Source: an uncultured Poribacteria bacterium (lineage in GTDB: Bacteria > Poribacteria > WGA-4E > WGA-3G). Taken from it: a DNA stretch of 64,000 nucleotides. A program made the translations under genes and the position numbers. The notes beneath the pieces were generated by a model. It had not been told where the DNA came from, did no database searches, and saw only the letters and a list, made by a program, of their open reading frames with translations. Shown in pieces: positions 6,084-60,310 of the stretch (position 1 is its first letter; each line of letters begins with the position of its first letter). The stretch covers positions 1,064,506 through 1,128,505 of the forward strand of contig OX638316.1 in assembly GCA_951812525.1 (NCBI GenBank), read 5' to 3'.

Positions 6084-7366
6084 TCTCCGCCACCGATTGC
6101 ATAGAGTGCGTTATAGCTGCGCAAGTAGAGTGCCTGGTTAGTGATAACGGGAGATGCGGCGATGGTTTCGTTTATGGAATTGCTGGCGACTATTTCAAAC
6201 TCACGTCCCGCTTTCACAACGGTGATAACACCGTCTCGAGATGTAAGGTAGATATATCCATTTGCATAGACAGGCGAGGCGCGATGTCGATGCCGATGCG
6301 TCCGCTCACGGTAGAGTTGTTGTCCGGTTTCGGCATCAAGACATATTAGGTCCCCATTTTCCCGACAGAGATAGACCAATCCGTCGTGAATAAGAGGCGA
6401 AGGGACATCGGGTGTGCCTTGTCGAAGCTTCCAGCGTTGCCATTTGCCGTTAGTGACATCGCCTTGTGCGGCGGGATCGATGCCGACAACGGGTCCATTT
6501 TTCGCCGAAGGGACGACGATAAGACCTTCTGTCACGACAGGTGAGGCGACGAACCGAAGGGTGTAGTTGTAATTTCCCTTGGGATTCAAGTCACCGCATC
6601 GCCAGATTTCGCTGCCATCTTCAAGGCTGTGTGCAGTCACATAATCGGCACCATGTACGACGAGGTATTCATGTTCTGCATCGCGGTAGAGAATGGGGGA
6701 GGTGTAGGCGTGTTCACATTCCTCGGTTGCGTCGCTATCACGTTTATGTTTCCAGATTTCCTCGCCCGTCATTTTGTCGAGCGCAAGGACAAGCCACGCG
6801 CCGCTGTGGATGAGATGCATGTAAAGCCGATCTTGGTCAAGGAGCGGGGTTGTTGCCATGACAAAGTAAAGGTTGAATCTACCGTACCGCTCGGCAAGAT
6901 TGGTGTGCCATACCTCATTTCCATCGAAATCATAACAGACGAGATCCCCTGTGCCAAAGAACGCCCAGACGTGTTCACCATTCGTTACAGGAGAGGGTGC
7001 CGCAAAATTGCCTTCACCCCTACGAACAACTCGGTTCCCGCGTGCTATAGTGCGTTTCCAGAGTTCTTTGCCTTCGGTGCTGATACACATCAAAACAAGT
7101 GCGTCATCTTCAGCGGAGGTGAGGAAAATTTTATCCTCCCAAACGATAGGCGTGGAGGCGGCTTCTCCAGGGAGAGGGAAACGCCATTGGATATTTTCAG
7201 TTTGGCTCCATTGGATAGGCGCATTGGTGGCTTGGCTGACACCGTCGTTATTTGGTCCGCGCCACCGGTGCCAATTGTCAGCAGACAAAGACCCTACAAG
7301 GATAAAAACTGTGAGTAAAAGGGTTAGCGTGTTTCTTAACATAAGTTTTTGCATAATGAACACCAT
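6080..7366 (-). CDS. Secreted PQQ-like beta-propeller repeat protein (BamB/PQQ enzyme-repeat family).
   Basis: Signal peptide, then repeated A..G.V(Y/F)..(S/T).DG.L.A.D..TG...W motifs across the length. Confidence 0.7.
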   Translation of the reverse strand: MVFIMQKLMLRNTLTLLLTVFILVGSLSADNWHRWRGPNNDGVSQATNAPIQWSQTENIQWRFPLPGEAASTPIVWEDKIFLTSAEDDALVLMCISTEGKELWKRTIARGNRVVRRGEGNFAAPSPVTNGEHVWAFFGTGDLVCYDFDGNEVWHTNLAERYGRFNLYFVMATTPLLDQDRLYMHLIHSGAWLVLALDKMTGEEIWKHKRDSDATEECEHAYTSPILYRDAEHEYLVVHGADYVTAHSLEDGSEIWRCGDLNPKGNYNYTLRFVASPVVTEGLIVVPSAKNGPVVGIDPAAQGDVTNGKWQRWKLRQGTPDVPSPLIHDGLVYLCRENGDLICLDAETGQQLYRERTHRHRHRASPVYANGYIYLTSRDGVITVVKAGREFEIVASNSINETIAASPVITNQALYLRSYNALYAIGGGE

Positions 7367-14030: not shown

Positions 14031-14966
14031 TCATTCTGTAACTAACGCACCACTAGTAGGCGTATCAGCGGGAACCGAGGCATCGGTGAATCTGTAAATT
14101 TTCAGTGTTAACACGAAACTACTAACTAACATAAGCGCACCGACCGCGACGTGTGCGGTTGTAATTGTTACCGTGAGTGCGGCTGCGAACGTTTCCCCAA
14201 GAGCGGTTAGTTTCGCGAAAAACGCGCCTGTACCGAGTATCAACTGCACAGCAAGGAGTCCCAGCAACAAAAGTGCCCCGGACGGAGCGATTCGCTGTGT
14301 GGCATCACTTGCCCCAAGGATACGTCTCGCCAGTAAGAAAATGTGCAGTGCGACCAAAAAAGCAAAAAGAAGATGCGCATCAAGCCTGCTACCAGTATGC
14401 CGCAAAACCGCTCCGAAGATAAGCTGCACATAAATCAGCCCTGTTGTAATCAGGCTTAACCGCCGCAGCTTTTGCGATTCGGCGACCATGGATTCATTCT
14501 TTTCCTCCCACCAATCGCGAGAGGAGAACCAAGCGATCCCACAGAGGAGTGCGAAAAACGCTTGTGCGAGACATGCGTGTACTATCGCAAAGTTGCGATT
14601 AACCTGCGTGACCCGAAGTCCACCGAGAACACCTTGTACAATGACAGCGATGAGTGCAGCGAGCCCGAGCCATTTTAGCCACTTGCGGGAATCTTTCGCC
14701 AATATGAAGACGAAAAGTCCGACTGTCAAGAGCCCAACGAGGGAACCCATGAGCCGATGACTATGCTCATATAGGATACCACCGACCATTTCGGACAGTG
14801 GATAGAGAAACATGTTATATCCGAAAGTTGTTGGCCAATCAGGGACAGCCAATCCAGAGTCAGTGCCTGTAACGATTCCGCCGATGACAATCAACAAGAA
14901 AGTCGCGCCTGCAGTGAGGCGTGCCAGTCTGTGTAACCACGGGCTATACTTGGTGTCGTTCTGCAT
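14031..14966 (-). CDS. ctaA: Heme A synthase (COX15/CtaA).
   Basis: Eight-TM protein with conserved His-containing helices (LYEHSHRLMGS, VLRHTG). Confidence 0.8.
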   Translation of the reverse strand: MQNDTKYSPWLHRLARLTAGATFLLIVIGGIVTGTDSGLAVPDWPTTFGYNMFLYPLSEMVGGILYEHSHRLMGSLVGLLTVGLFVFILAKDSRKWLKWLGLAALIAVIVQGVLGGLRVTQVNRNFAIVHACLAQAFFALLCGIAWFSSRDWWEEKNESMVAESQKLRRLSLITTGLIYVQLIFGAVLRHTGSRLDAHLLFAFLVALHIFLLARRILGASDATQRIAPSGALLLLGLLAVQLILGTGAFFAKLTALGETFAAALTVTITTAHVAVGALMLVSSFVLTLKIYRFTDASVPADTPTSGALVTE

Positions 14967-37468: not shown

Positions 37469-38914
37469 TTAGAAAATCCCTGCAATCGGTTCGCCTTTCA
37501 CCAACTCGCGTGGCTGATCCAAATGGTTGTACACGATGGTGTGTGGATCGATACCGAGTGTATGATAGACCGTCGCGAGGATGTCGCGTGGGTGTACGGG
37601 GTTCTCAAGCGGTGTTGAACCGGTCGCATCGGACTTCCCGTAAACCTGTCCACCTTTTACACCTGCGCCAGCAATTAAGCCCGTATAGCAATAGGGCCAG
37701 TGGTCGCGTCCATCAGGTGCATTGCTGTTACCGGAGGTGCTAATACCCATCCGCGGGGAACGTCCGAATTCACCGACCGCCAAGACGAGGGTGTCTTCCA
37801 ACATGCCGCGCTGATCCAAGTCTTCCAGCAGCGAAGAGACTGCACTGTCTAATTTCGGGCAGTGAAGATTCTTCAGCGGACCGAAGTTGGTTGCGTGTGT
37901 ATCCCATGCTGTGGTATTCGGATCACCGTTAGCAACAGAAGGCCAGTTCACCTGTACGAAACGGGTGCCTGCTTCCACCAAACGACGAGCGAGAAGTGCA
38001 CTCTGTCCGAACGTGTGTCTACCGTAACGATCCCGGACTTCGTCTGGTTCCTGAGACAAATCGAAAGCATTTCGTGCGCGTTGCGACAAAATGAGATTGT
38101 ATGCCTTCTCATAATACTCGTTCAAGGCGTAAGAGTCAGCAACCTTATCAATTTCGGGCATGCCAGCATTAATCGTCTCAAGAAGCGTTTTCCGGCGTTT
38201 CAGACGGACTGGTGTCACCTCTGGCCGTAGACTCAAATCGTCGAGATTAATTTCCTCATTCGGGTCTTGGAAGAGGAAATACGGATCGTACGCCCTACCG
38301 AGGAACCCTGCATTTCCACCTTTACCGATGGTATTACTCTCTTGCATTGGGCGAGGCAGCTGCACAGCCGAGAGCATCGGTTCATCGGGTGGACGGTAAT
38401 TGGAGACATGCGCTGCTACATTCGGATGGTCGGCTGGTGACGGCGGATCCAGCTGCCCAGAAGGCGAGACCTTGTCCGGTGTTTCACCGGTCACCATCTG
38501 ATACATCGCAGCGGTGTGATTGAAAAGACCTGCCGGTGTGTAACTTATGGAACGGATAAGGCAAGCTTTATCCATCTGCTGTGCCAAACGTGGCATTGTT
38601 TCAGACAACTGAATTCCCGGTACATTAGTTGGGATCGGACTAAATTCACCGCGGATGTTCGAGGGTGCTGCCGGTTTCGGATCCCAGATGTCAAGGTGGC
38701 TAGGACCGCCTTGCAAAAAGAGCAGAATGACCGAGTTGGCTTTTCCCCATCCGTTGAGCGGCTTGGAGGGATCAACTGCCGTATTGGCGTTGGCTTGGAG
38801 TGACAATACCTGTGGCAAACTAATGCCGAGCATCGCCGCACCACCGACACGCAGAAATTCACGCCGCGAGAACCCGTCACATAAGCGTCCGGGTAGTTGT
38901 GGTAACGATAACAT
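37469..38914 (-). CDS. DUF1501 family protein (sulfatase/alkaline-phosphatase-like fold) with a Tat signal.
   Basis: RREFLRVGGAAMLGISLP twin-arginine. DUF1501-type core. A classic partner of the adjacent DUF1549/DUF1553 gene. Confidence 0.8.
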   Translation of the reverse strand: MLSLPQLPGRLCDGFSRREFLRVGGAAMLGISLPQVLSLQANANTAVDPSKPLNGWGKANSVILLFLQGGPSHLDIWDPKPAAPSNIRGEFSPIPTNVPGIQLSETMPRLAQQMDKACLIRSISYTPAGLFNHTAAMYQMVTGETPDKVSPSGQLDPPSPADHPNVAAHVSNYRPPDEPMLSAVQLPRPMQESNTIGKGGNAGFLGRAYDPYFLFQDPNEEINLDDLSLRPEVTPVRLKRRKTLLETINAGMPEIDKVADSYALNEYYEKAYNLILSQRARNAFDLSQEPDEVRDRYGRHTFGQSALLARRLVEAGTRFVQVNWPSVANGDPNTTAWDTHATNFGPLKNLHCPKLDSAVSSLLEDLDQRGMLEDTLVLAVGEFGRSPRMGISTSGNSNAPDGRDHWPYCYTGLIAGAGVKGGQVYGKSDATGSTPLENPVHPRDILATVYHTLGIDPHTIVYNHLDQPRELVKGEPIAGIF

Positions 38915-39046: not shown

Positions 39047-41548
39047 TTAGCGATTGAATAAGAAAGAGGGACTGTTAATTAGCGCCCATAATAAGTCTTG
39101 CGCACCCACTTCCTTCGACTCAGCATTTGCGATATACTCAATCGCTACTGCATATTCGTTCTTATCCGGTAACCGAGAAAGCGTTGCGAGATATAGTTCC
39201 TCAACGAGAACCCGATCATCTTGATTCGCTTTAATGAGTTGTGCGATACGTCCTTCTGGATCGATGAGTGCCTCCGCAACCGTCGGTCCATTAATGAGAT
39301 TCATTGCGTGTGCGAGGCTGACCTCTGTGGTGCGTTCACATTCACACGAACTTTCGCGTTCAGGTCTACCAAATAACTTCAAAAATCCGTCATCTTTGAC
39401 CTTACTGTCCGGCAATTGCACGGCTCGGAATTTTTTCGGTACCTCTTCAAATCGCGGTCGGCTGTCTGTCGCAACACCGATCGCATCCAACAGCTGCTCA
39501 GCCGTCAAGCGTCTAGCGGTTGCATGCGAAAAGTTAATCGTATCAGCCTTGTTCCACTTGTTGGTTTTGATGCTCTGCTGATAGGTTCGAGAACGGGTGA
39601 TTGTCTTCATGACATGCTTCATGTCAAAACCACTGTCCACGAAGTCCTTTGTCAACGCATCAAGCAATTCAGGGTTGCTGGGTGGATTACTTGTGCGGAT
39701 ATCGTCTACAGGTTCGATAATCCCACGTCCCATGAAGTAACTCCAGATGCGGTTCACACCTGCCGTAGCAAACATCGGATTTTCTTCAGAGGTGAGCCAT
39801 TCCGCGAGCATCTCACGCTTATCGCCATGCGCTGCAACTTCTCCGAACGGGACTGAGGGTTCAACAACCGCCAAGGTTCGCGGATGTTTCACAGGCTCTG
39901 GGGTGTAATTGGCGTAGACAATTTCATCGCCGGGAAGTTGTCCTGGCTTGATTTTGACATCCGCGAAGAACGCACCAAACTCGTAGTATTGATTCTGCGT
40001 CCATTTTTCAAATGGGTGATCGTGACATTTATTACACGAGAATCGGACACCTAAGAAGAGCTGCGTCGTATTCTCCACAGCGGCAGTGTATTCACGGGAG
40101 ACACGAAAATAACTCGCTGCAGGGTTCGTGTAGGTACTACCATTAGCGGTAATCAGATCTCGCACAAATTCGTTATACGGACGATTCTCGGCGATGGCTT
40201 GATGTATCCACTGCTGGAAGAGCCAGACCCCACGTTCACCGAGGAATTTACGGTTGGACTGCAACAGATCTCCCCATTTGTGTGTCCAATGATCGACAAA
40301 CTCCGGTGTCTCAACGAGGGCATCAATGAGTTGCTCCCGTTTTGTTTTCGATGCGGTTTTGTCGCTCAGAAAACTCCGAACTTGCTTGGGGGTCGGTGGA
40401 ATACCGGTTAAATCGAAATAGATACGCCGCACAAACTCCTCATCTGTACAGAGTTCAGAAGGCAGCACCTTCATCCGTTTTAGCTTATTGTGAACGTGCG
40501 TATCAATGTAGTTGTATTCCGCTGTCTTAACCCACTTGTAGCCACTCCTGTCGCCCATCACAAACATGTTGTTTGTGCTATAGGCACCTTCATAGCGGGT
40601 GAGGATAGAGGTTTCACCGCGGCGTTCTGCGGTTACGACACCTTCGTCTGTGACATTTGCCACTTCATTGCTGCTACTTGTGAATTTCGCCTCACGGGTG
40701 ACATCCCGCGTTGTCCCATCTGAATAGTGTGCGATGACTATAAGTTGTTGTTTCATACCGGGCATCGCGAGTTCAGCGGAATCGGGGACAACTTCTAATC
40801 TTTGCACGCGTTGCGTCGTCGCAACATCAGGGATAGCACCTTCGGCAATCCACTGATGCATGACACTATAGTCTCGATCTCCTGGGACAAATACCTGCCC
40901 GCCTTTGTGTGGCACTTCCGATGTCGGTTTTAGCAACATCAGACTCTGTTCGGGGAATGCTCTGTTGAAGCGGCGTCCAGATATATCTTCAATTAAGAGC
41001 TCATAATCAAAATCAGGATCGTAGCCACGAAGTGAGAGTTTGAATCCATTTTTGCCTTTCGCTGCACCGTGGCACGTTCCGTTATTACATCCAGCATGGC
41101 TCAGAACAGGCATGACATCTCGTACGAAACTAACGGGCGGTGCCTCCATGCTTTTGACATTCACGGGTAATTCGGTACGCATGCCTTTGACGCTAACGCC
41201 AATTTTCGTTGTGCCAACTGTCATCGGGAAGATATAGCCATCTTCATGTACCTTCACACCGGCGGTGGCTGGCGTCAACACAGCCCACGGTGTTACATCT
41301 ACCCATGTGCCATCTTTTGTCTTACCTGACACGAGCACACGTCTACCATCGCGTGCGTGCTCCAATGTCAACGACTCCGGATGAACCCTCAACTCCGTTA
41401 AAGCGACGCTTGCAAGCCAATCTTGCTCCGTCGGAACCTCTGCACTTGCGGTTTGCTCCACCCGATCCCATCCCGTCAATTGGAATGCGAAGCAGACAAA
41501 ACATACAACAAGGAGTGTTGTTACAAAGTTAAACCTGGGTTTCATCAA
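39047..41548 (-). CDS. PSCyt2/DUF1549-DUF1553 (Planctomycete PSD1-type) protein with an N-terminal Big_2-like domain.
   Basis: CNNGTCHGAAKGKNGFKLSLRGYDPDFDYELL is the PSCyt2 signature, with a second box FSCNKCHDHPFEKWTQNQYYEFGAFF. The C-terminal region is DUF1553-like. Signal peptide present. Confidence 0.8.
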   Translation of the reverse strand: MMKPRFNFVTTLLVVCFVCFAFQLTGWDRVEQTASAEVPTEQDWLASVALTELRVHPESLTLEHARDGRRVLVSGKTKDGTWVDVTPWAVLTPATAGVKVHEDGYIFPMTVGTTKIGVSVKGMRTELPVNVKSMEAPPVSFVRDVMPVLSHAGCNNGTCHGAAKGKNGFKLSLRGYDPDFDYELLIEDISGRRFNRAFPEQSLMLLKPTSEVPHKGGQVFVPGDRDYSVMHQWIAEGAIPDVATTQRVQRLEVVPDSAELAMPGMKQQLIVIAHYSDGTTRDVTREAKFTSSSNEVANVTDEGVVTAERRGETSILTRYEGAYSTNNMFVMGDRSGYKWVKTAEYNYIDTHVHNKLKRMKVLPSELCTDEEFVRRIYFDLTGIPPTPKQVRSFLSDKTASKTKREQLIDALVETPEFVDHWTHKWGDLLQSNRKFLGERGVWLFQQWIHQAIAENRPYNEFVRDLITANGSTYTNPAASYFRVSREYTAAVENTTQLFLGVRFSCNKCHDHPFEKWTQNQYYEFGAFFADVKIKPGQLPGDEIVYANYTPEPVKHPRTLAVVEPSVPFGEVAAHGDKREMLAEWLTSEENPMFATAGVNRIWSYFMGRGIIEPVDDIRTSNPPSNPELLDALTKDFVDSGFDMKHVMKTITRSRTYQQSIKTNKWNKADTINFSHATARRLTAEQLLDAIGVATDSRPRFEEVPKKFRAVQLPDSKVKDDGFLKLFGRPERESSCECERTTEVSLAHAMNLINGPTVAEALIDPEGRIAQLIKANQDDRVLVEELYLATLSRLPDKNEYAVAIEYIANAESKEVGAQDLLWALINSPSFLFNR

Positions 41549-41775: not shown

Positions 41776-42696
41776 TTACGCGAGATCCCAGAGCAGTACA
41801 ATGTCATCATCGCCCCCACTGGCGAGGACACGCCCGTCAGAAGCATAGGCGACATGTCTGACACTGCTCGTATGCCCTGTAAGTACACCTTTAGGTTCTC
41901 CTGTCTCAGCATCCCATAAACGGATGGTATTGTCGTTCCCACCACTCGCGATGGTTTTACCGTCATGCGAGTAAGCGACGCTCCAGACATAACCCGCATG
42001 TCCTGTAAGCGTCGTTATTAAACTTCTTTTGTCCGTACTCCACAACCGAATTGTGCCGTCAACACTGCCACTCACAAGGGTCTCTCCATCAGGCGAATAG
42101 GCAACCGAATTGACAATGTGTGTATGTCCCTCAAGTGTTGCTCTGTGTTTTCCGGTAGCAGCGTCCCATAATAACAGAGTGTCGTCCCCAGTTCCAGCGG
42201 CGAGAGTGTTCCCATTGGGCGAGAATTTAACACATCTGATAGAGTCTGCGTGCCCTTTGAGTGTGTCTTTAGCCTCTCCGGTGGCGGCATCCCACAACCA
42301 CACCGTTCCATCAGTACTCCCACTGGCGACGGTGGCACCGTCTGGGGCATACGTAACACTCCTAACAGCGTCTGTATGTCCTGTAAGCGTCGCTGTCGGA
42401 GATCCACCGATTGCGTCCCATAGAACAACCGTATTGTCTATACTTCCGCTGGCGATCGCACTGCCGTCAGGCGAAAAGGCGACACATCTAACGTACTCCT
42501 TGTGTTCAACAAGGAGGTTAAGTCCAAGTCCGGTGTCTACATCGTAGATCCAGACCCCGATGTCACACGCGACCGCGAGTTGCGTTCCATCGGACGAGAA
42601 TGCTATATCTCCAGTTAGGTTTCCCTGATCAAGACGTGCTTTGACGCCTTCAGGTAGATTCGATTGTGTGTCTGTTTGTGTGTTCATAATTTCCAA
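41776..42696 (-). CDS. WD40-repeat protein, seven repeats.
   Basis: Seven H..V/..SPDG......S.D.T..LWD units, for example GHTDAVRSVTYAPDGATVASGSTDGTVWLWD. Confidence 0.85.
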   Translation of the reverse strand: MEIMNTQTDTQSNLPEGVKARLDQGNLTGDIAFSSDGTQLAVACDIGVWIYDVDTGLGLNLLVEHKEYVRCVAFSPDGSAIASGSIDNTVVLWDAIGGSPTATLTGHTDAVRSVTYAPDGATVASGSTDGTVWLWDAATGEAKDTLKGHADSIRCVKFSPNGNTLAAGTGDDTLLLWDAATGKHRATLEGHTHIVNSVAYSPDGETLVSGSVDGTIRLWSTDKRSLITTLTGHAGYVWSVAYSHDGKTIASGGNDNTIRLWDAETGEPKGVLTGHTSSVRHVAYASDGRVLASGGDDDIVLLWDLA

Positions 42697-42982: not shown

Positions 42983-43840
42983 CTATTTCTGATTCTTTAA
43001 CTCCCCCCATATTATCGGCAATTTACTACTGGCGGAGACATCTGCGAATTCCGATTCACTTGCCAACCAATTGATAACGTTTTCGGTAAGCTGCTCCAAT
43101 TGGTCAATATCTTTGTTGTTCTTATGATAATTTGGGAGTCTCCAGTTCATGTTGAAGACTTTCCCTTTACCAGCCTCCCAATAGCCGAACGCTGCAATCC
43201 GATCGCCCCAATCGTTAGCAGGTGGTCCCCAAGCATTAGCAAGTGTAATAAAATCTTTCCAAATCTTGTCGTAATAGTCGCCGCTCTTTGGATAGCCTGT
43301 GGAATTAACTTGAATTCTATCGTCTTCCTGAGGGTCTTTCTTGTCAACACTCTTGAGTCCTTCTGTTAATCCTAACGCAATCGTCTCTTTTAGGACAGTA
43401 ATACCGACCGCAATACCGTCTTCTGCGACGGGACCGAATTGGCGTGCCTCCGCTTTTTCAAGTCCGAAGTTAGTTGCGTGACGGATCGCCCACCCCGTTA
43501 AGAGAACAGCTCCTCCGCTTTCGGCGTAGTCTAAAAAAGCATTAATTTCCGGGTCGGACAATTCACCCGGATCGGTATCACCTTCATGCCACCAAATAAC
43601 CCCGAACTGTTTGAATTTGTCGCTCTTCAAATCTGCTTTCGCGAGTAACTCTGTATTGAATGCCTCTTCAGCAAATTCCAACGCCGGTGCCGTGAACGGA
43701 CCATTATCGCCGAGATAGATGAACCCAAGTTCTACCGCAGCATTGCTTATATTTATACCAAAAATGAAAAGAAATGTCAAACAAAATACGATTGGGCGAA
43801 ACTTGTAAGCCAAATCTTGCGATTTAAAAGTCCGTTCCAT
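42983..43840 (-). CDS. Secreted hypothetical protein ending in the conserved tail motif.
   Basis: N-terminal signal/anchor. The C-terminus is ...SEFADVSASSKLPIIWGELKNQK. No other domain was recognised. Confidence 0.5.
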   Translation of the reverse strand: MERTFKSQDLAYKFRPIVFCLTFLFIFGINISNAAVELGFIYLGDNGPFTAPALEFAEEAFNTELLAKADLKSDKFKQFGVIWWHEGDTDPGELSDPEINAFLDYAESGGAVLLTGWAIRHATNFGLEKAEARQFGPVAEDGIAVGITVLKETIALGLTEGLKSVDKKDPQEDDRIQVNSTGYPKSGDYYDKIWKDFITLANAWGPPANDWGDRIAAFGYWEAGKGKVFNMNWRLPNYHKNNKDIDQLEQLTENVINWLASESEFADVSASSKLPIIWGELKNQK

Positions 43841-43901: not shown

Positions 43902-44699
43902 TTACTCAGATGGCAGAGAATTCGAGTCGTTGCGGTATTCGAGAAGGCGTTCATTTGCGGCTTTCACAAAACTCGGTTCAACCTCAAATCCGATGAAATC
44001 TCGTTCATGCCGCTTACAGATCACTGGACAGGTGCCTACGCCTGCAAAGGGATCCAGAACCAGATCGCCCGGTGATGAACTCGCCAAAACAATCCGCTCG
44101 ATTAACCTTTCGGGCTTCTGGATTGTGTTGAGTGCCTTTCTGCTGACCAATTCCTTTGATTTGTAGGTTAGTTGTTTTATATCTCCCCAAACATCGCCCG
44201 GATTTTTGCCTTTTGGATTGTACTTAGTCTTGCCAAACTTACCGTTGGTTACAGACGGCACATTCTCACACCGATTCCGATGTGCCAACTCAACAAGTTG
44301 GGCAACTCTAATAGCATCTAAGTTATAACACTGCGGTCTTTTGCCCTTAATGAAATAGCAGATAATGTCATAATTGTTGGTGTAATTGATGCGTCCCTGC
44401 GCGAGCCGACTCGGTTGATACCAGACAATCTTTGAACGGAGATTTAAAAACCGCCGGTAGTCTATAAAGTCGATGCAGTCCGGCTTACCAAAGAGATAAA
44501 GTGCGCCACCGTCCTTGAGTTTCGGTGCAAAACTTTCGATAAGTGTAAGATTAAATTCCTGAATTGACGGAATCCCGTCCCACGATTTTCCTGTCACACC
44601 ATACGGTCCATCACACACAACCAAATCTACAGAGGTGTCTTCTATCTCTTTGAGTAGATTAAAGGTGTCGCCACAATGGATGGTGTTGCGTTCAAGCAT
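43902..44699 (-). CDS. DNA methyltransferase (N4/N6 beta-class, PF01555-like), orphan.
   Basis: Motif IV DLVVCDGPYGV (DPPY-like). Motif I LVLDPFAGVGT near the C-terminus, the order typical of beta-class enzymes. No restriction endonuclease is adjacent. Confidence 0.7.
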   Translation of the reverse strand: MLERNTIHCGDTFNLLKEIEDTSVDLVVCDGPYGVTGKSWDGIPSIQEFNLTLIESFAPKLKDGGALYLFGKPDCIDFIDYRRFLNLRSKIVWYQPSRLAQGRINYTNNYDIICYFIKGKRPQCYNLDAIRVAQLVELAHRNRCENVPSVTNGKFGKTKYNPKGKNPGDVWGDIKQLTYKSKELVSRKALNTIQKPERLIERIVLASSSPGDLVLDPFAGVGTCPVICKRHERDFIGFEVEPSFVKAANERLLEYRNDSNSLPSE

Positions 44700-44724: not shown

Positions 44725-46173
44725 TTACATCGGTCCCACCCGACGTGGTCCTATGTCCATAGCAAACATAGATGCATCAAAATTGCGTTTTAGCAATTCT
44801 GTTTTGATGTCTTGCTTCGCAGGTGTATGCCAGAGATTGTTAAACTCGTCCGGGTCATCAACGAGGTCGTAGAGTTCACCTTCATCGTGCCCGTGATATA
44901 CTGCCAATTTGTAACGCTCATCTCGGTACATCGTTGCGAAAGAGTGATCCGGCAGATCAACTGCATCGTAGTATTCGCATCGGACAAAGTCACGGTGATA
45001 GTCTGCATCCGCCTCGCCTCGGAGAATGGGTAGCAGCGATCGCCCGTGCATTCCGTCGGGGACCGGGACCCCTGCTAATTCTAAAAGGGTCGGTGCTTTA
45101 TCAACGAGTTCAACAAGGGCGTTGCTCTTCAAACCGCTCACAAATTGCCCGGGCCATGCGAAAATCAGTGGCACTCTGACTAAACCTTCATAAAACCGAC
45201 AGCCTTTTTGTATTAATCCGTGATCGCCGAGTGTCTCACCGTGGTCGCTTGTAAAGATGATAACCGTGTTTTCTCGTTGTCCTGTCTCTTCCAACGTTTC
45301 GAGGATCCTGCCCAACTGCTCATCAATAAGCTGAATCATGGCATAGTAGGCGGCTTTAAGCGTTTTGGCATCCCTTGCCCCGATAGCCTCCGTTTCCTGA
45401 CGCGGTGTCTGCGGTAAGATCGGGCTACGGATGTCTAATTCATCTGGTGTACGTACCTTGGACTGAAAGTCGACGGCTTGTAATCGGGTCTGTTGTTCAA
45501 GATCGCTATCTCGGAAAAGCGGTTCCGGCATTTCCGCTGGATCAAATTGTTCTCGATGTGTCTGCGGCGGATTGAAGGGTGGATGCGGATCGTAAATGTT
45601 AACGCTTGCGAGCCACGGACCATCGCGTTCCTCACGGATAAACGCAATCGTTTTCTCGGCACACCAAGTTGTCTGATGTAATTCTGCAGGTACGCCTTCG
45701 GGATTCCGATTCAGCTCGCCGAGTATATATCCTTTTGAACGGACCCAATCTGCGTAGTCATGTCCGTGTTCCCAGTCATCACGTGGAGCATGGCTGTATT
45801 GCCAGTAGCGATATCCATCGTCCGCGCGCGGTTCCACGCGACGGTAAGCACTTGCGAGATGGAGTTTGCCAATTAGCCCACAATCATAACCGATGTTGGC
45901 GAGGGTGCGTGTCACAAGCGGATACGCTGCTGGAAAAAAATCGTTTCCATTACGAAGCGTATGCGTTGCGCCGGGATACATACCCGTAAGAAAACTCGCT
46001 CGGCTCGGTGTACAGATAGGGCTTTGACAATAGGCATGTGTGAACGCTACGCCTTCCGCGACTAAATCATCAATGTGCGGTGTCGATACATACGGATTGC
46101 CTAATGCACCGATTGTATCGTAACGTTGCTGATCTGTGCAAACCCAGAGTATATTGGGTGCCTTAGCAGCCAT
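44725..46173 (-). CDS. Formylglycine-dependent sulfatase (arylsulfatase family). No signal peptide is evident.
   Basis: NILWVCTDQQRYD...CQSPICTPSRASFLTGMYP contains the C-x-P-x-R FGly motif. Confidence 0.85.
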   Translation of the reverse strand: MAAKAPNILWVCTDQQRYDTIGALGNPYVSTPHIDDLVAEGVAFTHAYCQSPICTPSRASFLTGMYPGATHTLRNGNDFFPAAYPLVTRTLANIGYDCGLIGKLHLASAYRRVEPRADDGYRYWQYSHAPRDDWEHGHDYADWVRSKGYILGELNRNPEGVPAELHQTTWCAEKTIAFIREERDGPWLASVNIYDPHPPFNPPQTHREQFDPAEMPEPLFRDSDLEQQTRLQAVDFQSKVRTPDELDIRSPILPQTPRQETEAIGARDAKTLKAAYYAMIQLIDEQLGRILETLEETGQRENTVIIFTSDHGETLGDHGLIQKGCRFYEGLVRVPLIFAWPGQFVSGLKSNALVELVDKAPTLLELAGVPVPDGMHGRSLLPILRGEADADYHRDFVRCEYYDAVDLPDHSFATMYRDERYKLAVYHGHDEGELYDLVDDPDEFNNLWHTPAKQDIKTELLKRNFDASMFAMDIGPRRVGPM

Positions 46174-46194
46174 CCATTAGCCTCTTTGTGCGTG

Positions 46195-47793
46195 CTATTT
46201 AGTCGTCGCGCTAAACCCGGCCTCTTTAACGATGTTGGCGAGGTCAGCGGCAGTGGCGGTATTCTTGCGGACTTTAATGATTGCCTGATTAGGGAGAGAA
46301 ACTTCAACGCTGATAACGCTTTCGTGTTGTGTAAGTGCACCCTGCACTTTTGCGACACAAGCACCTCACGTCATGCCTGTCACAACCAAAGCGACATCCT
46401 CGCTGCCCGCCGGCTCAATCGGTACAGACATAAAGGCGTTCAGTAGTTTTCCGGAAGCGGTGTCAAATATCCGAATCTTCCCGTCGAAACCGCCCGTAGC
46501 GAGTTGTTTGCCATCAGGATGGAACGAGACTGCGAAGACCCCAACCGCATCGCCCTGCATTGATGCCAAGCGCTTCCCGTCTTCTACGTTGTAGACACGC
46601 GCTTCGCCACCTGTGCAGCCGGTAGCAAAATGACTGCCGTCTGCTGAAAATGCGTAACCTTCAATTGAACCCGATTGCGCTTCATAGGCTTGGATGAGGT
46701 TAAAGTCAGTGTTGCCGACATCCCTTCGGATCTCGCGAAAAATTTTGTAAAGCCGTGGTATCCGATCTTCACCACCACTTAGCACCTGGTCTTTAGTCGG
46801 GTGTCGTGCGATGGTATTGATTTCGCCGTAACCTTTGTTACTGGAGTTGATGTCGTCAACAAAAGAGCCTGTGTTTACTTCAACTAATTTGAGAGCGGTA
46901 TCCCGTCCGGCACTCACGAAATGCGACCCATCAGTGGAGAAAATTGTCCCGAAGACCCAATCGCTGTGGTTATCGAATTTAATGAGTTCCTTTTCATCTG
47001 CAACGGAGAGCACACGCACAGTTTGATCTGAACATCCGAAAGCGATGCGGCTGGCATCTGGTGAGAAAGAGAGTCCGTACACGGTGTCATAACTGGAACG
47101 CATCGTTTTGATTAGGGTATTCGTTGCGGTATCCCAGAGTTGTATTTCGCCAAACTGCGCTGGTGAGCCACCTGCTACCCCTAATATCTTTCCATCCGTC
47201 GTATAAGTGAGCGATTCTATACGATGCGCTTTGCCGACCAAGCGCGCTTTGAGTTCAAAATTCGTTGTATCATACAATAAAACTTCGCGGAATCCTGAAA
47301 CTGCAAGCGTGCTGCCGTCGGGTGAATATGCGATAGCTGAGATCACAGGGGGTACTGTGTAGGTTGGATAGTTTCCTTCACCCATGTCATCGACTTCATC
47401 GGGTGTGTCATCGTTCGCGCCTTCAAGGATCCAACGTCGGAAAAGTTCTACTTCCTCAAGCGTGAGCGGTTCTTGATTCTGCGGCATTGCCGGTTCATCA
47501 CCAGAGATGAGTTTAATGATGAGACTTTCATCGGGTTTTCTTGTGATGATTGCCTCTCCCGCCATACCGCCCCGTTTTAGGTCGGCGTAGGTTGTCACAA
47601 TCAGGTCGCCATTCGGATCACCAGGGTGATGGCATCCTTGACAACTCCGTTTGAGAATGGGGACAATTTGTGCGTGGTAACTGACTGCTGAACCTGAAGC
47701 ATGATTGTCCGCAGTTACAAACGGGCTCCATACTACAAAACAGAACAGGGACACTGCTAAATGAATTATAAACCTCGATCGCGATTTATTCAT
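46195..47793 (-). CDS. Signal peptide / PSCyt1 (CxxCH) / WD40 beta-propeller / C-terminal HMA domain protein. The ORF is interrupted by an in-frame UGA (46366..46368) exactly at the first Cys of the HMA motif, so it is either a candidate selenoprotein (M-T-U-G-A-C) or a pseudogene.
   Basis: Start MNKSRSRF (ATG at 47791-47793). CQGCHHPGDPNG matches PSCyt1. WD-like repeats throughout. Through the UGA the frame continues as GMT-U-GACVAKVQGALTQHESVISVEVSLPNQAIIKVRKNTATAADLANIVKEAGFSATTK to a stop at 46195, a canonical HMA fold if the UGA is Cys or Sec. Confidence 0.5.
46327..46360 (-). promoter_or_regulatory. SECIS-like stem-loop starting 6 nt 3' of the in-frame UGA.
   Basis: RNA: UUGUGU-CGCAAAA-GUGCA-GGG-UGCAC-UU-ACACAA. 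This gives 6+5 bp of stem with an internal bulge and a G-rich apical loop, and the apical G lies about 25 nt from the UGA. Confidence 0.4.
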
Positions 47794-48024
47794 ATTGTCG
47801 AAAACCTCCCACCCGTTACGGTGCGGTTCTATAATAAGCTGCGCCAAGAATGTCGTGGTTAACATATTTTTGCAATAATTATATCACATTTTCACAATGA
47901 AATTCAAGAAAAAAATCGTGTCAAATATTTCCGGTTGACATCTGTTGAAATATAGGATATACTTCTTTTGGCTAGTATGAAGGCAATATACTCTTAGGAA
48001 ATATAATTTAAGGAGATTTTTTTC

Positions 48025-56905: not shown

Positions 56906-59900
56906 CTACTCCTCTGATGGGAGGGCATACACACCCCACCGGACTCTCACAATTTCACCTGCGTCTACAAGGCGAGAAAGTTCATTTTTTATCGCTTTTG
57001 GATGTCCATCAATCACTTCAACCAATTCCCTTGTTTTCTTCTTACCATCGGAAGCCAGCATAGAGAGGATTTGCTCGCGGAAAGGGACTCGTAAGGGTTT
57101 TCCACCCCTGAGCTTCTTTAACATGCGGTTTGCCTGCCTTGAGGAACATCCCAAGATACGCTCCACTTCTTCTCTGCTGGATTCAGCGGTTAGATTGGCA
57201 CGTTCTTCCTCAAAACGCTCGCGTGTGGCTATCGCCTCAGGAAGGTTGTCCAAACTACCAGCAACCTCAAAATCTTCCCAGTCAAACAAGAATGTTTCAG
57301 GTCTGTCAGTAATGTCGGGCAGTGTCAAACCGGAGATTAAAACAATTCTTTTGTTCGTCCAGCGGTTTAACCCAGCACGTAAGACCGTTCGTGTAAGTGC
57401 GCGAACGATCCCGTGTTCATAAATTCCCTGAATTCGCTGGTCCTTATAGCACTGGGTCTCTACATCCTCCTCATAAGAGAGAGGCTTTTTGTCATTTCCA
57501 AACAAAATCTGTGCTTGTCTCCAAACGAGGGTTGGTGACCGCTGCGGCGTGCCAACTATCCAAATGACTTCTGCTTCTTTAAGAGCAGGACGTCGTCCCC
57601 CGATATTGCTGAAATTGGTCACGAAACAGACGTTCTGTTTTTGCGCGATATCGTCTAACCGTGCAGCAACTGACCTATAGGTGATAATCGCATGCTTAAC
57701 ATCCGGATCCCTCTCAATCTCTGCACGAATACTGGCAAAAAAGCGTTGTCCTATCTTAGACATGCCGATAACATCCCAGTTGTCGTTGTAGCCCATAATT
57801 GTTCGTCGGGGATAGATCCCAGTACGAATCTGAAAGACCTGGTTCCCTATGCCCCACGCACTTGGTTCGGTACGGCTCACCTGAATTTCTTCATTTGGAA
57901 ATGCCCTACGGAGATGCTGCTCAGAGAGGGTCGCCGACATTAGCAAAAGGCGTTTGACACTCGAATGCAGAACGGGCGGCACCCAGAACCTCAGGACCTT
58001 ACCACTCCACCGTATTGGTGCGTCGGCATCTCGCGTGTAATGTTCAAAGAAACGCTTGATTTGATGCCAAAACGTCCAGTTTGGATCCTGACAGACCGTC
58101 GGGAATGCCTGAATGCTCTCTACGGTCCCTGTATCCAAGATGCCCAATTCGATAGCTTGTGTCATTGGCATCAGGATTTTCAGGTCCTCGTTAGGCGCAA
58201 AGGAATAGAACGGAAAGATAGGAAGTCCCTTTGCTGCGAGCGCATTTGCAGCATCTTTGTCTAAAGGAATGTAAGCGGAGATATTACCTTCAAATTCAAT
58301 GGTAAAACGTGCTAATTTCTCTCCGGTATCAGAATCAGTATAGCCTCGTTCTACCACCTTACCTTGTACGTTGATGTGACTCATCTGCTTGACGATTTCT
58401 TCTTCTCGCCATTCAAAGACCCGTACCACCGTGCGGATGCGTTTGACAGCATCGGCATGGGGTTTGTCCTCGACTTCTACCGCATGCAACAAGGCTTTGG
58501 CAAAATTTCCTAAGGCACACCCTTGCCAGTTCATACTCCATTCTTCTAATAATTTTTTTGATAGTTTACATTCAAGAAACAACTTATTAAGTTGTGCTCT
58601 GATGATGATGCAAAGCCTGTCTGGCTCATCCACCTCTTTGAGGATTTTTTCTACCAATCCTACGTACTGCGGATTGAAAAACATATTGGGGAATGCCAAT
58701 ATCTGCGCCTTAGCATGTTGTAACGCCTCGGTTTGTGATAGATACCCTCGCTCCTGGCACTCCATATAGACAGGGCATTGCGGACAGATGCTTTCGCTTG
58801 GATTTCCACCCTTTTTCTCGAGTGCATCGCATCGCTCTGGATCCTCACAGACATTGCCGCGTTGAAAAGGGGTTGCCATGCGCACAGCAATCGGTATTTC
58901 CTTCGCCTCTTCCCATCGATACATCCGAGGTTTCCAACGCGCAAACGACGGTACGTTTTGTTTTTCATAGGACGCCTCCGCTTCTTCGGCTAACCTGATA
59001 ACTGGGACATTTAAGCAGACCGCGCCGCCGGTATGGAGATATGATACAGTTTCACGCCTGCCAGCGTCCGTCTTGGTAGTAAGTCCGAGAATACGAGCAG
59101 CCCCATCGAAAATGCTTTGTGTCTGAATAGTGCTCTCTTCGGGTGTTTCATAATCCCCTTCCGTGTATTCCGGTTTGTGGAGTACGGAGGGCGGACGCTT
59201 TATCGCCAATGGACTCAGCTTCCCTTCCCGCACTGCGAGCACTTTATCAGATCCAGACAGCTCAACAGCGGTAGTCAGTGAGACAATACCGGTATCGTCC
59301 CAGATCTCTGTTATTGGTGTGTCTCTCGTAGGCAGCCCAGCGTCAGAGGTAGATGCACGGACCCATACAGTGCCATCACTCTCCCAGAACGATACATGTT
59401 CATCGCTAATAGCACCATCAGGGGGCATCCAATAGTGTAAATCGTTCTCTTGTCGGACATAAGAAAAGCCGCGTTGTACAAACGCAGCCTTTGCGAGATC
59501 GAGATTATTTGAACCGAGGGTGGAAGGTGTAACAGGGATAACTTGTGGAAGGTCTCCTAATTCCTGTTCGTCAGGAGGGGCAGGTTCGTGAAGTTCTGCA
59601 CGGAGGGCATCAATAGGGGCAAAGAGCACCTCTTTAGCAACCACAGGCGGATCTAACAAACTCCCAAGCAGAATCTCGTAGCGCGCATCCCACCGACTGT
59701 ATCCTTCTTCCGCCAAGATTTCGAGATACACGTCTCGTTGATCCGGGTTTTCTGGAGTCGGTGCGTGCTTATAGATATACAGTCTTGCATCCTCAGTATT
59801 TGGATGGAGGTAATCTGGAACTCTGCAAGAGAATCGCAGTCCACCGGACTTTGATAGCGTTAGCAGCGGATTATCTATGGCGTTGACAAGTGCGTCAATA

Positions 59901-60310
59901 CAGGCATAAACAGCATCAGGAGCGGTAGAAATGGCTTCGTATGTAAAATCAATATCATGCCACCGTGCACCGTCGCATTCGGAAGGAATACCGGTATACA
60001 CCTGAATTCCCCACGACCCATGCCATCGTCTCATTCCCCAATCCTGTACCCCTTGACGGTTTAAGAACCGTTCGCCTCCAAAATCCCTCGGACCATGGTC
60101 ATTTTCAGGCGCGTGTCCTATCGGCATAAAGGAGATATCTGCCTGCTCCAAGTCAGCAAGCAGCACTGGGCATCTCTGTGCGCAATAGACTGTGAGATGA
60201 TAAGGATAACCTTTATTATAGAGTGCAGGTGTTACAACTGTCTTCCGCTGTCGAAGCGGGTTTTCGTGCCGTTCGTGGCAGCGTTCAATAATATCTTTTA
60301 AGGGATCCAT
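56906..60310 (-). CDS. 1134-aa protein with an N-terminal Prim-Pol (bifunctional primase/polymerase)-like domain, a Cys-rich zinc-binding region and a C-terminal winged-HTH. Putative replication-initiation protein of a mobile element or replicon.
   Basis: Prim-Pol-like motifs HDIDF (catalytic DxD-like) and LSKSGGLRFSCRV (the sGGxHxyF motif). Cys cluster CEDPERCD...CPQCPVYMEC. C-terminal wHTH LVEVIDGHPKAIKNELSRLVDAGEIVRV. No Walker A was found. Confidence 0.5.
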   Translation of the reverse strand: MDPLKDIIERCHERHENPLRQRKTVVTPALYNKGYPYHLTVYCAQRCPVLLADLEQADISFMPIGHAPENDHGPRDFGGERFLNRQGVQDWGMRRWHGSWGIQVYTGIPSECDGARWHDIDFTYEAISTAPDAVYACIDALVNAIDNPLLTLSKSGGLRFSCRVPDYLHPNTEDARLYIYKHAPTPENPDQRDVYLEILAEEGYSRWDARYEILLGSLLDPPVVAKEVLFAPIDALRAELHEPAPPDEQELGDLPQVIPVTPSTLGSNNLDLAKAAFVQRGFSYVRQENDLHYWMPPDGAISDEHVSFWESDGTVWVRASTSDAGLPTRDTPITEIWDDTGIVSLTTAVELSGSDKVLAVREGKLSPLAIKRPPSVLHKPEYTEGDYETPEESTIQTQSIFDGAARILGLTTKTDAGRRETVSYLHTGGAVCLNVPVIRLAEEAEASYEKQNVPSFARWKPRMYRWEEAKEIPIAVRMATPFQRGNVCEDPERCDALEKKGGNPSESICPQCPVYMECQERGYLSQTEALQHAKAQILAFPNMFFNPQYVGLVEKILKEVDEPDRLCIIIRAQLNKLFLECKLSKKLLEEWSMNWQGCALGNFAKALLHAVEVEDKPHADAVKRIRTVVRVFEWREEEIVKQMSHINVQGKVVERGYTDSDTGEKLARFTIEFEGNISAYIPLDKDAANALAAKGLPIFPFYSFAPNEDLKILMPMTQAIELGILDTGTVESIQAFPTVCQDPNWTFWHQIKRFFEHYTRDADAPIRWSGKVLRFWVPPVLHSSVKRLLLMSATLSEQHLRRAFPNEEIQVSRTEPSAWGIGNQVFQIRTGIYPRRTIMGYNDNWDVIGMSKIGQRFFASIRAEIERDPDVKHAIITYRSVAARLDDIAQKQNVCFVTNFSNIGGRRPALKEAEVIWIVGTPQRSPTLVWRQAQILFGNDKKPLSYEEDVETQCYKDQRIQGIYEHGIVRALTRTVLRAGLNRWTNKRIVLISGLTLPDITDRPETFLFDWEDFEVAGSLDNLPEAIATRERFEEERANLTAESSREEVERILGCSSRQANRMLKKLRGGKPLRVPFREQILSMLASDGKKKTRELVEVIDGHPKAIKNELSRLVDAGEIVRVRWGVYALPSEE

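Follow-up and report, generated by a model that had tools for sequence, protein, structure and literature searches.

The 64-kb window analyzed here (64,000 nucleotides [nt] of contig OX638316.1, assembly GCA_951812525.1, from an uncultured, sponge-symbiotic Poribacteria bacterium) carries on its minus strand, at 46195..47793, a complete open reading frame (ORF) of 532 residues whose sole interruption is an in-frame TGA at 46366–46368. This is very probably a genuine selenoprotein gene of Candidatus Poribacteria, the comparisons given below pointing to a UGA-recoded and almost certainly selenocysteine (Sec)-containing product. The frame starts with the ATG at 47793 (MNKSRSRF...) and stops with the TAG at 46195–46197, and the UGA (46366..46368, minus strand) is codon 476, the proposed Sec, and stands where the GMT-C-x-x-C metal-binding motif of a C-terminal heavy-metal-associated (HMA; ferredoxin-like) domain has its first Cys. 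The minus-strand translation of 46195–47865 reads ...SEDVALVVTGMT up to the TGA and GACVAKVQGALTQHESVISVEVSLPNQAIIKVRKNTATAADLANIVKEAGFSATTK from there to the TAG. An in-frame UGA at the first Cys of an HMA metal-binding motif had already been proposed in a first-pass annotation of this DNA, and the placement is upheld by the Pfam HMA profile (PF00403), which scores 35.5 bits against a cut-off of 24.8 on the last 77 residues, Cys being substituted at the UGA for the profile scoring.

The orthologs were obtained from a scan of a species-representative genome collection, in which relatives are encoded in 244 stretches. The 80 best-matching Poribacteria loci, together with a second copy in one of them (L049), give 81 copies with a protein identity of 71–95%, and their source assemblies are short-read and long-read metagenome-assembled genomes (MAGs) and one single-cell genome. 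The codon following GMT is TGA in 81/81 copies, and TAA, TAG, TGT, and TGC are found in 0/81. The true terminator of the same genes varies (TAG in 60, TAA in 20, and TGA in one case). The frame after the TGA is open in all 81 copies for 56–57 further codons with a conserved end position, and the tblastn alignment spans residues 1–532 in most of the 80 loci. The start ATG at 47793 has GGGAGG upstream, and the equivalent Met is the start in the orthologs; an alternative in-frame ATG at 47865 was judged a less likely start. In L049 (5138–7600), the 3′ part of the gene is present in two copies of slightly differing sequence, with TGAs at 6469 and 7483, which points either to a partial duplication in tandem or to an artefact of assembly.

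The codons that follow the TGA are under purifying selection. Over the 56 codons behind the TGA, the Nei-Gojobori ratio of nonsynonymous to synonymous substitution (dN/dS) amounts to 0.134, or to 0.118 when the codons of the hairpin described below are left out, as against 0.054 for the upstream part of the gene. The first strand of the HMA fold and the GMT, that is, half an HMA motif, precede the TGA and are invariant. Behind the TGA, Cys+3 is invariant in 81/81 copies with both of its codons in use (TGT 49, TGC 32), and Val+4 is equally invariant (81/81) with four different codons. This is an indication that translation runs directly past the TGA, because both residues are kept as amino acids with synonymous codon variation. 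Among the database proteins, the best 120 (72–93% identity, ~475 residues) all end exactly at ...GMT, and their source names, where given, are Candidatus Poribacteria. All public gene callers stopped at the TGA and, therefore, domain-based annotation misses the HMA domain.

A hairpin in the coding region downstream of the UGA is the candidate bacterial Sec insertion sequence (SECIS). Its apical part, AAGUGCA-GGG-UGCACUU (46333..46349, minus strand; 5′ arm 46349–46343, loop 46342–46340, and 3′ arm 46339–46333), has a stem of 7 base pairs (bp) and a spacing of 23 nt, the first loop G being the 24th nt after the UGA. In the ungapped alignment used for hairpin conservation (A2, 82 sequences), the core AAAGTGCAGGNTGCACTT is almost invariant, and G36 and G37, positions 1 and 2 of the loop, are invariant in 82/82; most copies have a triloop. 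The 7-bp helix is paired in 98.1% of cells (77 distinct sequences). Its basal pair has changed from A-U to G-U six times and from A-U to G-C three times, and elsewhere in the stem single changes of U-A to U-G and of A-U to G-U are found, in which pairing is kept. The core motif GTGC[AG]GGN[TC]GCAC was found nowhere else in 1.11 Mb of fetched sequence and so pointed to no additional selenoprotein genes.

The synonymous sites of the hairpin are frozen. Third-position entropy is ~0 at codons +6 to +12 (AAA GTG CAG GAT GCA CTT ACA), and the neighboring codons vary. Out of 457 seven-codon windows, codons +6 to +12 show the lowest synonymous codon diversity (0.040 vs. a median of 0.476), and the nine lowest-diversity windows all overlap the hairpin. 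The dS of the hairpin codons is 0.066, as against 1.1–1.5 for other segments of the gene. The hairpin is thus under RNA-level selection. The element shows too little variation for an argument from covariation, and the case is made from the frozen synonymous sites instead.

The whole recoding element, including an outer helix, extends over 46313..46374 (minus strand) in the minimum free energy (MFE) structure. The outer helix, which is formed by AUGACGU (46374–46368) and GCGUUAU (46319–46313; RYGUUAU across the orthologs, 47 nt downstream), is retained by RNAalifold and is paired in 98.7% of cells, with its pair 9:60 being GC in 57, GU in 14, and AU in three sequences. It takes in the two codons before the UGA and the U of the UGA, and the recoded codon would in this way be partly sequestered. 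A middle helix (UUGUGU/ACACAA, columns 14–23 with 46–54) was rejected as a part of the conserved element, since it is paired in 76% across the orthologs and is dropped by RNAalifold. The first-pass annotation had described a SECIS-like stem-loop with a GGG apical loop about 25 nt from the UGA, which agrees with the first G at the 24th nt, and had let its stem start 6 nt after the UGA; the helix starting there is the one with 76% pairing and is not the conserved part.

According to the published model of bacterial SECIS elements (PMC13188914), the loop has 3–9 nt with a G in its first two positions, the upper stem 4–16 bp, the distance from the UGA is 16–37 nt, and the MFE is ≤ −7.5 kcal/mol. 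The Poribacteria element lies within all of these ranges, with a 3-nt GGN loop, a 7-bp stem, a 23-nt spacing, and −18.2 kcal/mol, as computed for the 63 nt from the UGA. As a single sequence, its fold has a z-score of −1.7 and is unremarkable alone.

Cys-type relatives show which residue the UGA replaces. A search with the last 119 residues retrieved P0121 and P0122, which are 57–58% identical and read ...VVTGMTCG[VA]CVAKVQNAL.... Their loci encode the same three-domain protein, and in L082 a scaffold gap of 100 N is all that breaks the frame. With the reconstructed Cys-type protein as a query, a wider family search revealed a clade of full-length Cys-type proteins from other Poribacteria (P0128–P0151; 532–579 residues, motif GM[TS]CxxC) and, among the relatives, further truncated gene calls of the Sec type. 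In the National Center for Biotechnology Information (NCBI) records, members of the Cys-type cluster are named, for instance, "cation transporter [Candidatus Poribacteria bacterium]" (MCH8290814.1) and "c-type cytochrome domain-containing protein" (MFB3042078.1). In P0121/P0122 and P0128–P0151, a Cys is aligned with the UGA position, the aligned codon is TGT, and the HMA family consensus has likewise a Cys. The alignment of orthologs that had been suggested at the outset gives a TGA with an open HMA frame in 81/81 copies and a Cys (TGT) in other Poribacteria.

A separate lineage carries the arrangement twice. P0152 (L083/L084, a 6.96-Mb contig; ENA ERZ25072076) has two tandem HMA domains (L083:4380–4900 and L084:4380–4900), which read ..AVSGMT(TGA)GACVNKVQVAL.. 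and ..SITGMT(TGA)GACVKKVQVAL.., with a TGA at the first Cys in each, and AAAGUGCAGGUYGCACUC follows each of the two TGAs. The arrangement of TGA and hairpin is thus repeated independently in this lineage, whose product would carry two Sec residues. The gene call in L084 presents the tail of the second HMA domain as a separate ORF of 55 amino acids ("HMA (weak)"). Other relatives (P0153, P0155, P0156, P0157, and P0159, e.g., HN371_07935 and O3A46_06935) end shortly after the WD40 propeller. As judged from the predicted proteins, the family exists in four forms, that is, HMA-less, Cys-HMA, Sec-HMA, and double-Sec-HMA.

From the N- to the C-terminus, the protein comprises a signal peptide, a PSCyt1 heme-c domain, a WD40 propeller, and the HMA domain (all on the minus strand). 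The predicted Sec-type (secretory) signal peptide (MNKSRSRFIIHLAVSLFCFVVWSPFVTA/DNH; 47710..47793) was read off the sequence, its Ala28 is nearly invariant in the orthologs, and it would imply export to the periplasm. The PSCyt1 c-type cytochrome domain (47482..47643) matches Pfam PF07635 with 34.3 bits against a cut-off of 22 and contains the heme-binding motif CQGCH (C51, C54, and H55; 47629–47643), which is invariant in 25 sequences and for which heme attachment is predicted. Motifs for c-type heme go together with periplasmic maturation. The WD40 beta-propeller (residues ~150–455; 46429..47346) is matched by many WD40/beta-propeller Pfam families, with 102.6 bits for PF00400. The HMA domain (PF00403) occupies residues ~466–532 (46198..46398) and bears the motif U476-G-A-C479. 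PSCyt1, WD40, and HMA are the only domains found in the product by Pfam, and an ATPase core (transmembrane, actuator, and P/N domains) was not found.

The sequence matches of the HMA domain in the PDB are metal-binding domains of ATP7A/B, CopA, and MerP. Its fold was modeled on the Cys-type homolog P0122 (57% identical) and not on the protein of the window itself. The AF2 model of this Cys-type fragment has the b-a-b-b-a-b fold (E62–70, H75–86, E91–97, E102–108, H114–123, and E127–130) with a pLDDT of 87–94, and the loop that joins strand 1 to helix 1 holds the metal-binding motif. The best Foldseek matches of the model are the metal-binding domain of ATP7B, MerP, and CopZ; it superposes on MerP (1osd) with a TM of 0.93 and a root mean square deviation of 1.2 Å, and CopZ (6ff2) superposes as well.

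In the proposed mechanism, which is itself ordinary as a mode of recoding, the UGA at 46366–46368 would be decoded as Sec, with the hairpin 23 nt downstream acting as a bacterial SECIS element that would recruit SelB.GTP.Sec-tRNA(Sec) to the ribosome, and translation would continue for 56 more codons to the TAG at 46195. The product would be an exported protein of 532 residues with the metal-binding loop G-M-T-U-G-A-C in its C-terminal HMA domain. In the periplasm, the selenolate/thiolate pair of U476 and C479 may bind a soft metal ion, for example, Cu(I) or Hg(II), in the manner of the Cys pair of MerP/CopZ. Alternatively, U476 and C479 may cycle as a redox-active selenosulfide, and the PSCyt1 heme domain may supply or remove electrons as a redox partner. 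Under selenium shortage, failed recoding would give a form of 475 residues without the HMA domain; such a form exists naturally in some relatives.

Other explanations of the interrupted frame appear far less probable than Sec recoding. If the gene were an ordinary Cys-HMA fusion, an error of sequencing or assembly or a nonsense mutation of recent date could have produced the TGA by a single-base change from TGT or TGC, and Cys-type orthologs do exist. However, the same TGA is present in 81 independent assemblies (MAGs from short and from long reads, and a single-cell genome), and the second lineage has two such TGAs. The TGA in 81/81 copies, therefore, excludes this explanation for practical purposes, and its probability is the smallest of all. 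Sec recoding is accordingly favored over the nonsense mutation that the first-pass annotation had left as its alternative. Only marginally more credible is a true terminator, in which case the protein would end at Thr475 and the HMA-like stretch would be an untranslated relic or a separate product from the GTG at codon +7. It is true that every public gene call stops at the TGA, that HMA-less relatives ending just after the propeller exist (P0153, P0155–P0157, and P0159), and that a GTG ORF of 50 amino acids lies at 46195..46347. On the contrary, the dN/dS over the 56 downstream codons is 0.13, the codon is never TAA or TAG whereas the real terminator varies, and an invariant half of an HMA motif stands before the TGA. 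A product from codon +7 would be without strand 1 and the whole UxxC loop, and residues +1 to +5, upstream of this sole candidate GTG, are kept as amino acids with synonymous changes, in line with the earlier statement that no alternative start would let the HMA domain be made separately.

A slightly greater, though still very small, probability is given to a UGA that is recoded to something other than Sec, either to Cys via a tRNA(ReC)-type tRNA (selC*) with SelB and the same hairpin or by near-cognate read-through, given that the inserted amino acid is not distinguishable from sequence data. If Cys were inserted, the retention of TGA and SECIS in 81/81 copies would be odd, as one TGA-to-TGY change suffices and Cys-type orthologs exist, and the genome WGA-3G is reported to have SelA and SelD, both of them required for making Sec. 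The terminators of the 45 called ORFs of the window are TAA in 27, TAG in 14, and TGA in four cases, one of the four being the recoded codon, and TGA is thus a rare true stop in the source genome. Inspection of 51 in-frame TGAs with open flanking frames in the 64 kb revealed none, apart from the one at 46366–46368, that is coding-like or in a Cys-motif context. No other recoded TGA is found in the window and, therefore, there is no sign of a genome-wide reassignment of TGA, which also counts against a recoding to something other than Sec.

Several results weigh against a Sec-containing product. ARAGORN found no tRNA in the 64-kb window, hence no tRNA-Sec, and its sole finds in the whole set of 87 loci were tRNA-Thr and tRNA-Phe, both in L083/L084, again without a tRNA-Sec. 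The genes selA, selB, and selD were found neither in the window (Pfam scans of 20 window ORFs) nor in the 1.1 Mb of fetched loci. Evidence for the machinery is second-hand and comes from the sister genome WGA-3G (locus L044), in which the TGA ortholog is present. For Ca. Poribacteria WGA-3G, Table S4 of PMC5649159 gives SelA = 2, SelB = 1, and SelD = 1 (COGs). In the same study, SelA and SelB co-occur in most bins of sponge symbionts and are missing from most closely related reference genomes (Slaby et al. 2017, PMC5649159). PMC13582414 also counts Poribacteria, on the basis of MAGs, among the phyla with Sec-type [NiFeSe] hydrogenases.

At the RNA level, covariation is sparse: four pairs change on both sides, which is no more than in shuffles, and the stem is nearly invariant. 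As to the co-variation of the hairpin that the first-pass annotation had raised, the few changes in the stem, which is 98.1% paired, preserve pairing. The Rfam search of the whole window at gathering thresholds matched no family, and at E ≤ 10 on 46150–46500 it gave only chance matches to a SAM riboswitch and a snoRNA and no SECIS family. Moreover, three out of four Cys-type homologs fold a similar small hairpin in the same place, with a dG of −6 to −7.3, the mean of the Sec type being −7.4. The hairpin alone is non-discriminating because of these three sequences, and the amino acid sequence K-V-Q-x-A-L favors such a stem anyway. A stronger formulation, in which the hairpin is absent from the Cys-type homologs, was discarded for the same reason. 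The Sec type is set apart by the invariant GG of the loop and by the absence of synonymous change; the four Cys-type sequences already differ from one another (GTA/GTG, CAG/CAA, and CTC/CTT/CTA), and the loop nucleotides of their hairpin are not fixed. A Sec-versus-Cys hairpin pattern of a like kind is described for hydrogenases in PMC13582414. Finally, the biochemical role of the protein, whether soft-metal binding or selenosulfide redox, is entirely inferred.

Sec in an HMA domain was known before from P-type ATPases, MerP, and UxxU proteins, and what is new in the Poribacteria protein is the heme-c/WD40/HMA architecture, the phylum, and the two-Sec subvariant. A Sec-HMA fused to a heme-c/WD40 protein had been called unusual at first, and this holds for the architecture and the lineage and not for Sec in the HMA domain itself. 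The mention, in the same place, of HMA-like selenoproteins in metagenomic surveys proved correct (NCBIfam NF041115 and NF045683). No selenoprotein with the heme-c/WD40/HMA architecture is listed in the 2026 review (PMC13188914), its family table included, and neither deep-Sep (main text and supplements) nor BSepDB (main text) mentions one.

The Sec-HMA P-type ATPases (ABB15669.1), for which Sec in place of Cys in the HMA domain is given in the review table (PMC13188914) and in the GOS table (PMC2398784), share with the Poribacteria protein the Sec for the first Cys of CxxC, that is, UxxC. In the ATPases, however, the HMA domain lies in the cytoplasm at the N-terminus of a membrane pump, whereas here it is C-terminal in an exported heme-c/WD40 protein without an ATPase. 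The best PDB sequence matches of the Poribacteria HMA are metal-binding domains of ATPases, but the product is not a P1B-type ATPase selenoprotein (TIGR01525/"Cation-transporting ATPase E1-E2"), as the CopA and ZntA models match the HMA stretch only and far below cut-off. The "UxxU metal-binding (seleno)protein" (NF041115, present in the 2026 review table, PMC13188914), the "MerT/CopZ fusion-like heavy metal transport selenoprotein" (NF045683), and the GOS MerP selenoprotein are likewise small domains of the HMA type whose metal-binding loop carries Sec. Among the NCBIfam models, CopZ, the UxxU metal-binding selenoprotein, and MerP come nearest, and for none of them is the cut-off reached; the scores are 37.2 against a curated cut-off of 95 for NF041115, 18.9 against 375 for NF045683, and 33.9 against 92.55 for MerP TIGR02052, and the protein is a member of none of these three. 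NF041115 has the motif UxxU, whereas the Poribacteria motif is UxxC, fused to a cytochrome-propeller scaffold with no MerT part.

The Cys-type metallochaperones MerP and CopZ have the same b-a-b-b-a-b fold with the motif in the loop of strand 1 and helix 1, as seen in the model of the Cys-type homolog. MerP is periplasmic. In contrast to the domain described here, MerP and CopZ stand alone as CxxC proteins of ~70 residues whose genes belong to mer or cop operons, and no mer or cop genes were found near the Poribacteria gene in the Pfam scans of the window ORFs. Closest in architecture are the Cys-type PSCyt1-WD40-HMA proteins of Poribacteria, with ~57–60% identity and the same junction (VVTGMT-C-G-A-C-VAKVQ); they differ in having TGT instead of TGA and in hairpin loops and synonymous sites that are not fixed. 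As for the RNA element, the bacterial SECIS consensus is likewise a coding-region hairpin just 3′ of the UGA with a small apical loop of G and then G/U and a spacing of 16–37 nt (PMC13188914). Compared with this consensus and with fdhF, the Poribacteria element is without an identified bulged U, has a triloop in most copies and an extra conserved outer helix, and matches no Rfam model. The Escherichia coli fdhF SECIS, UGCAGGUCUGCA, resembles the Poribacteria apex UGCA-GGN-UGCA.

In the window, the neighboring gene is a Cys-type sulfatase (44725–46173, minus strand; CTPSR motif, no signal peptide, cytoplasmic-type), which starts 21 nt after the selenoprotein stop. A sulfatase-like ORF is located <200 nt downstream in 57/80 Poribacteria loci. 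A functional link between the sulfatase and the selenoprotein is not evident, and gene context gives little help. A PSCyt2/PSD1 protein (39047–41548) and a DUF1501 protein (37469–38914), both on the minus strand, are found 5–9 kb downstream. Between the selenoprotein and PSCyt2/PSD1 lie, besides the sulfatase, a DNA methylase (43902–44699), an ORF without a Pfam match (42983–43840), and a WD40 protein (41776–42696). In the Cys-type loci L081 and L087, PSCyt2/PSD1 and DUF1501 both follow the HMA gene closely; in the double-Sec locus (L083/L084), PSCyt2/PSD1 follows it closely, and the end of the locus is reached without a DUF1501 gene.

The region of the window is rich in respiratory and periplasmic heme proteins. 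The segment 10185–17557 (minus strand) includes a CtaA/COX15 heme-A synthase gene (14031–14966, by Pfam) and neighboring putative heme-copper oxidase subunit ORFs, assigned by visual inspection of ORF sizes and N-termini, and the segment 22881–30982 (minus strand) encodes large cytochrome-c proteins of 523 and 1042 amino acids. An ORF of 1134 amino acids at 56906–60310 (minus strand) matches no Pfam family at E ≤ 1e-5.

A speculative and rather improbable extension of these findings is that the protein would be an undescribed selenium-dependent periplasmic module for redox or metal handling, in which the heme-c and propeller domains would exchange electrons with a U-x-x-C selenosulfide on a flexibly tethered HMA domain. 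In the sponge mesohyl, the task of such a module might be the reduction and capture of Cu(II)/Cu(I), Hg(II), or a metalloid, and the selenium supply would switch between the 475-residue and the full-length form. The two-Sec tandem of L083/L084 would then be a dose-amplified version, and the pairing with the sulfatase or with PSCyt2/PSD1-DUF1501 might point to a role in those Planctomycete-type gene pairs.

With this selenoprotein, the bacterial selenoproteome gains a well-supported family that is conserved throughout the 80 best-matching genomes of Poribacteria. In the public catalogs, the best 120 gene calls end at the TGA and the metal-binding domain is missed. With the hairpin, a candidate phylum without cultured members obtains a clean SECIS that is defined at the sequence level. 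In accordance with the report of SelA and SelB in sponge symbionts (PMC5649159), one concrete and conserved user of the Sec machinery can now be named. Because Cys, Sec, double-Sec, and HMA-less versions occur within one phylum, this family lends itself to the question of why Sec takes the place of Cys at a site of metal binding and not at a classical redox site.

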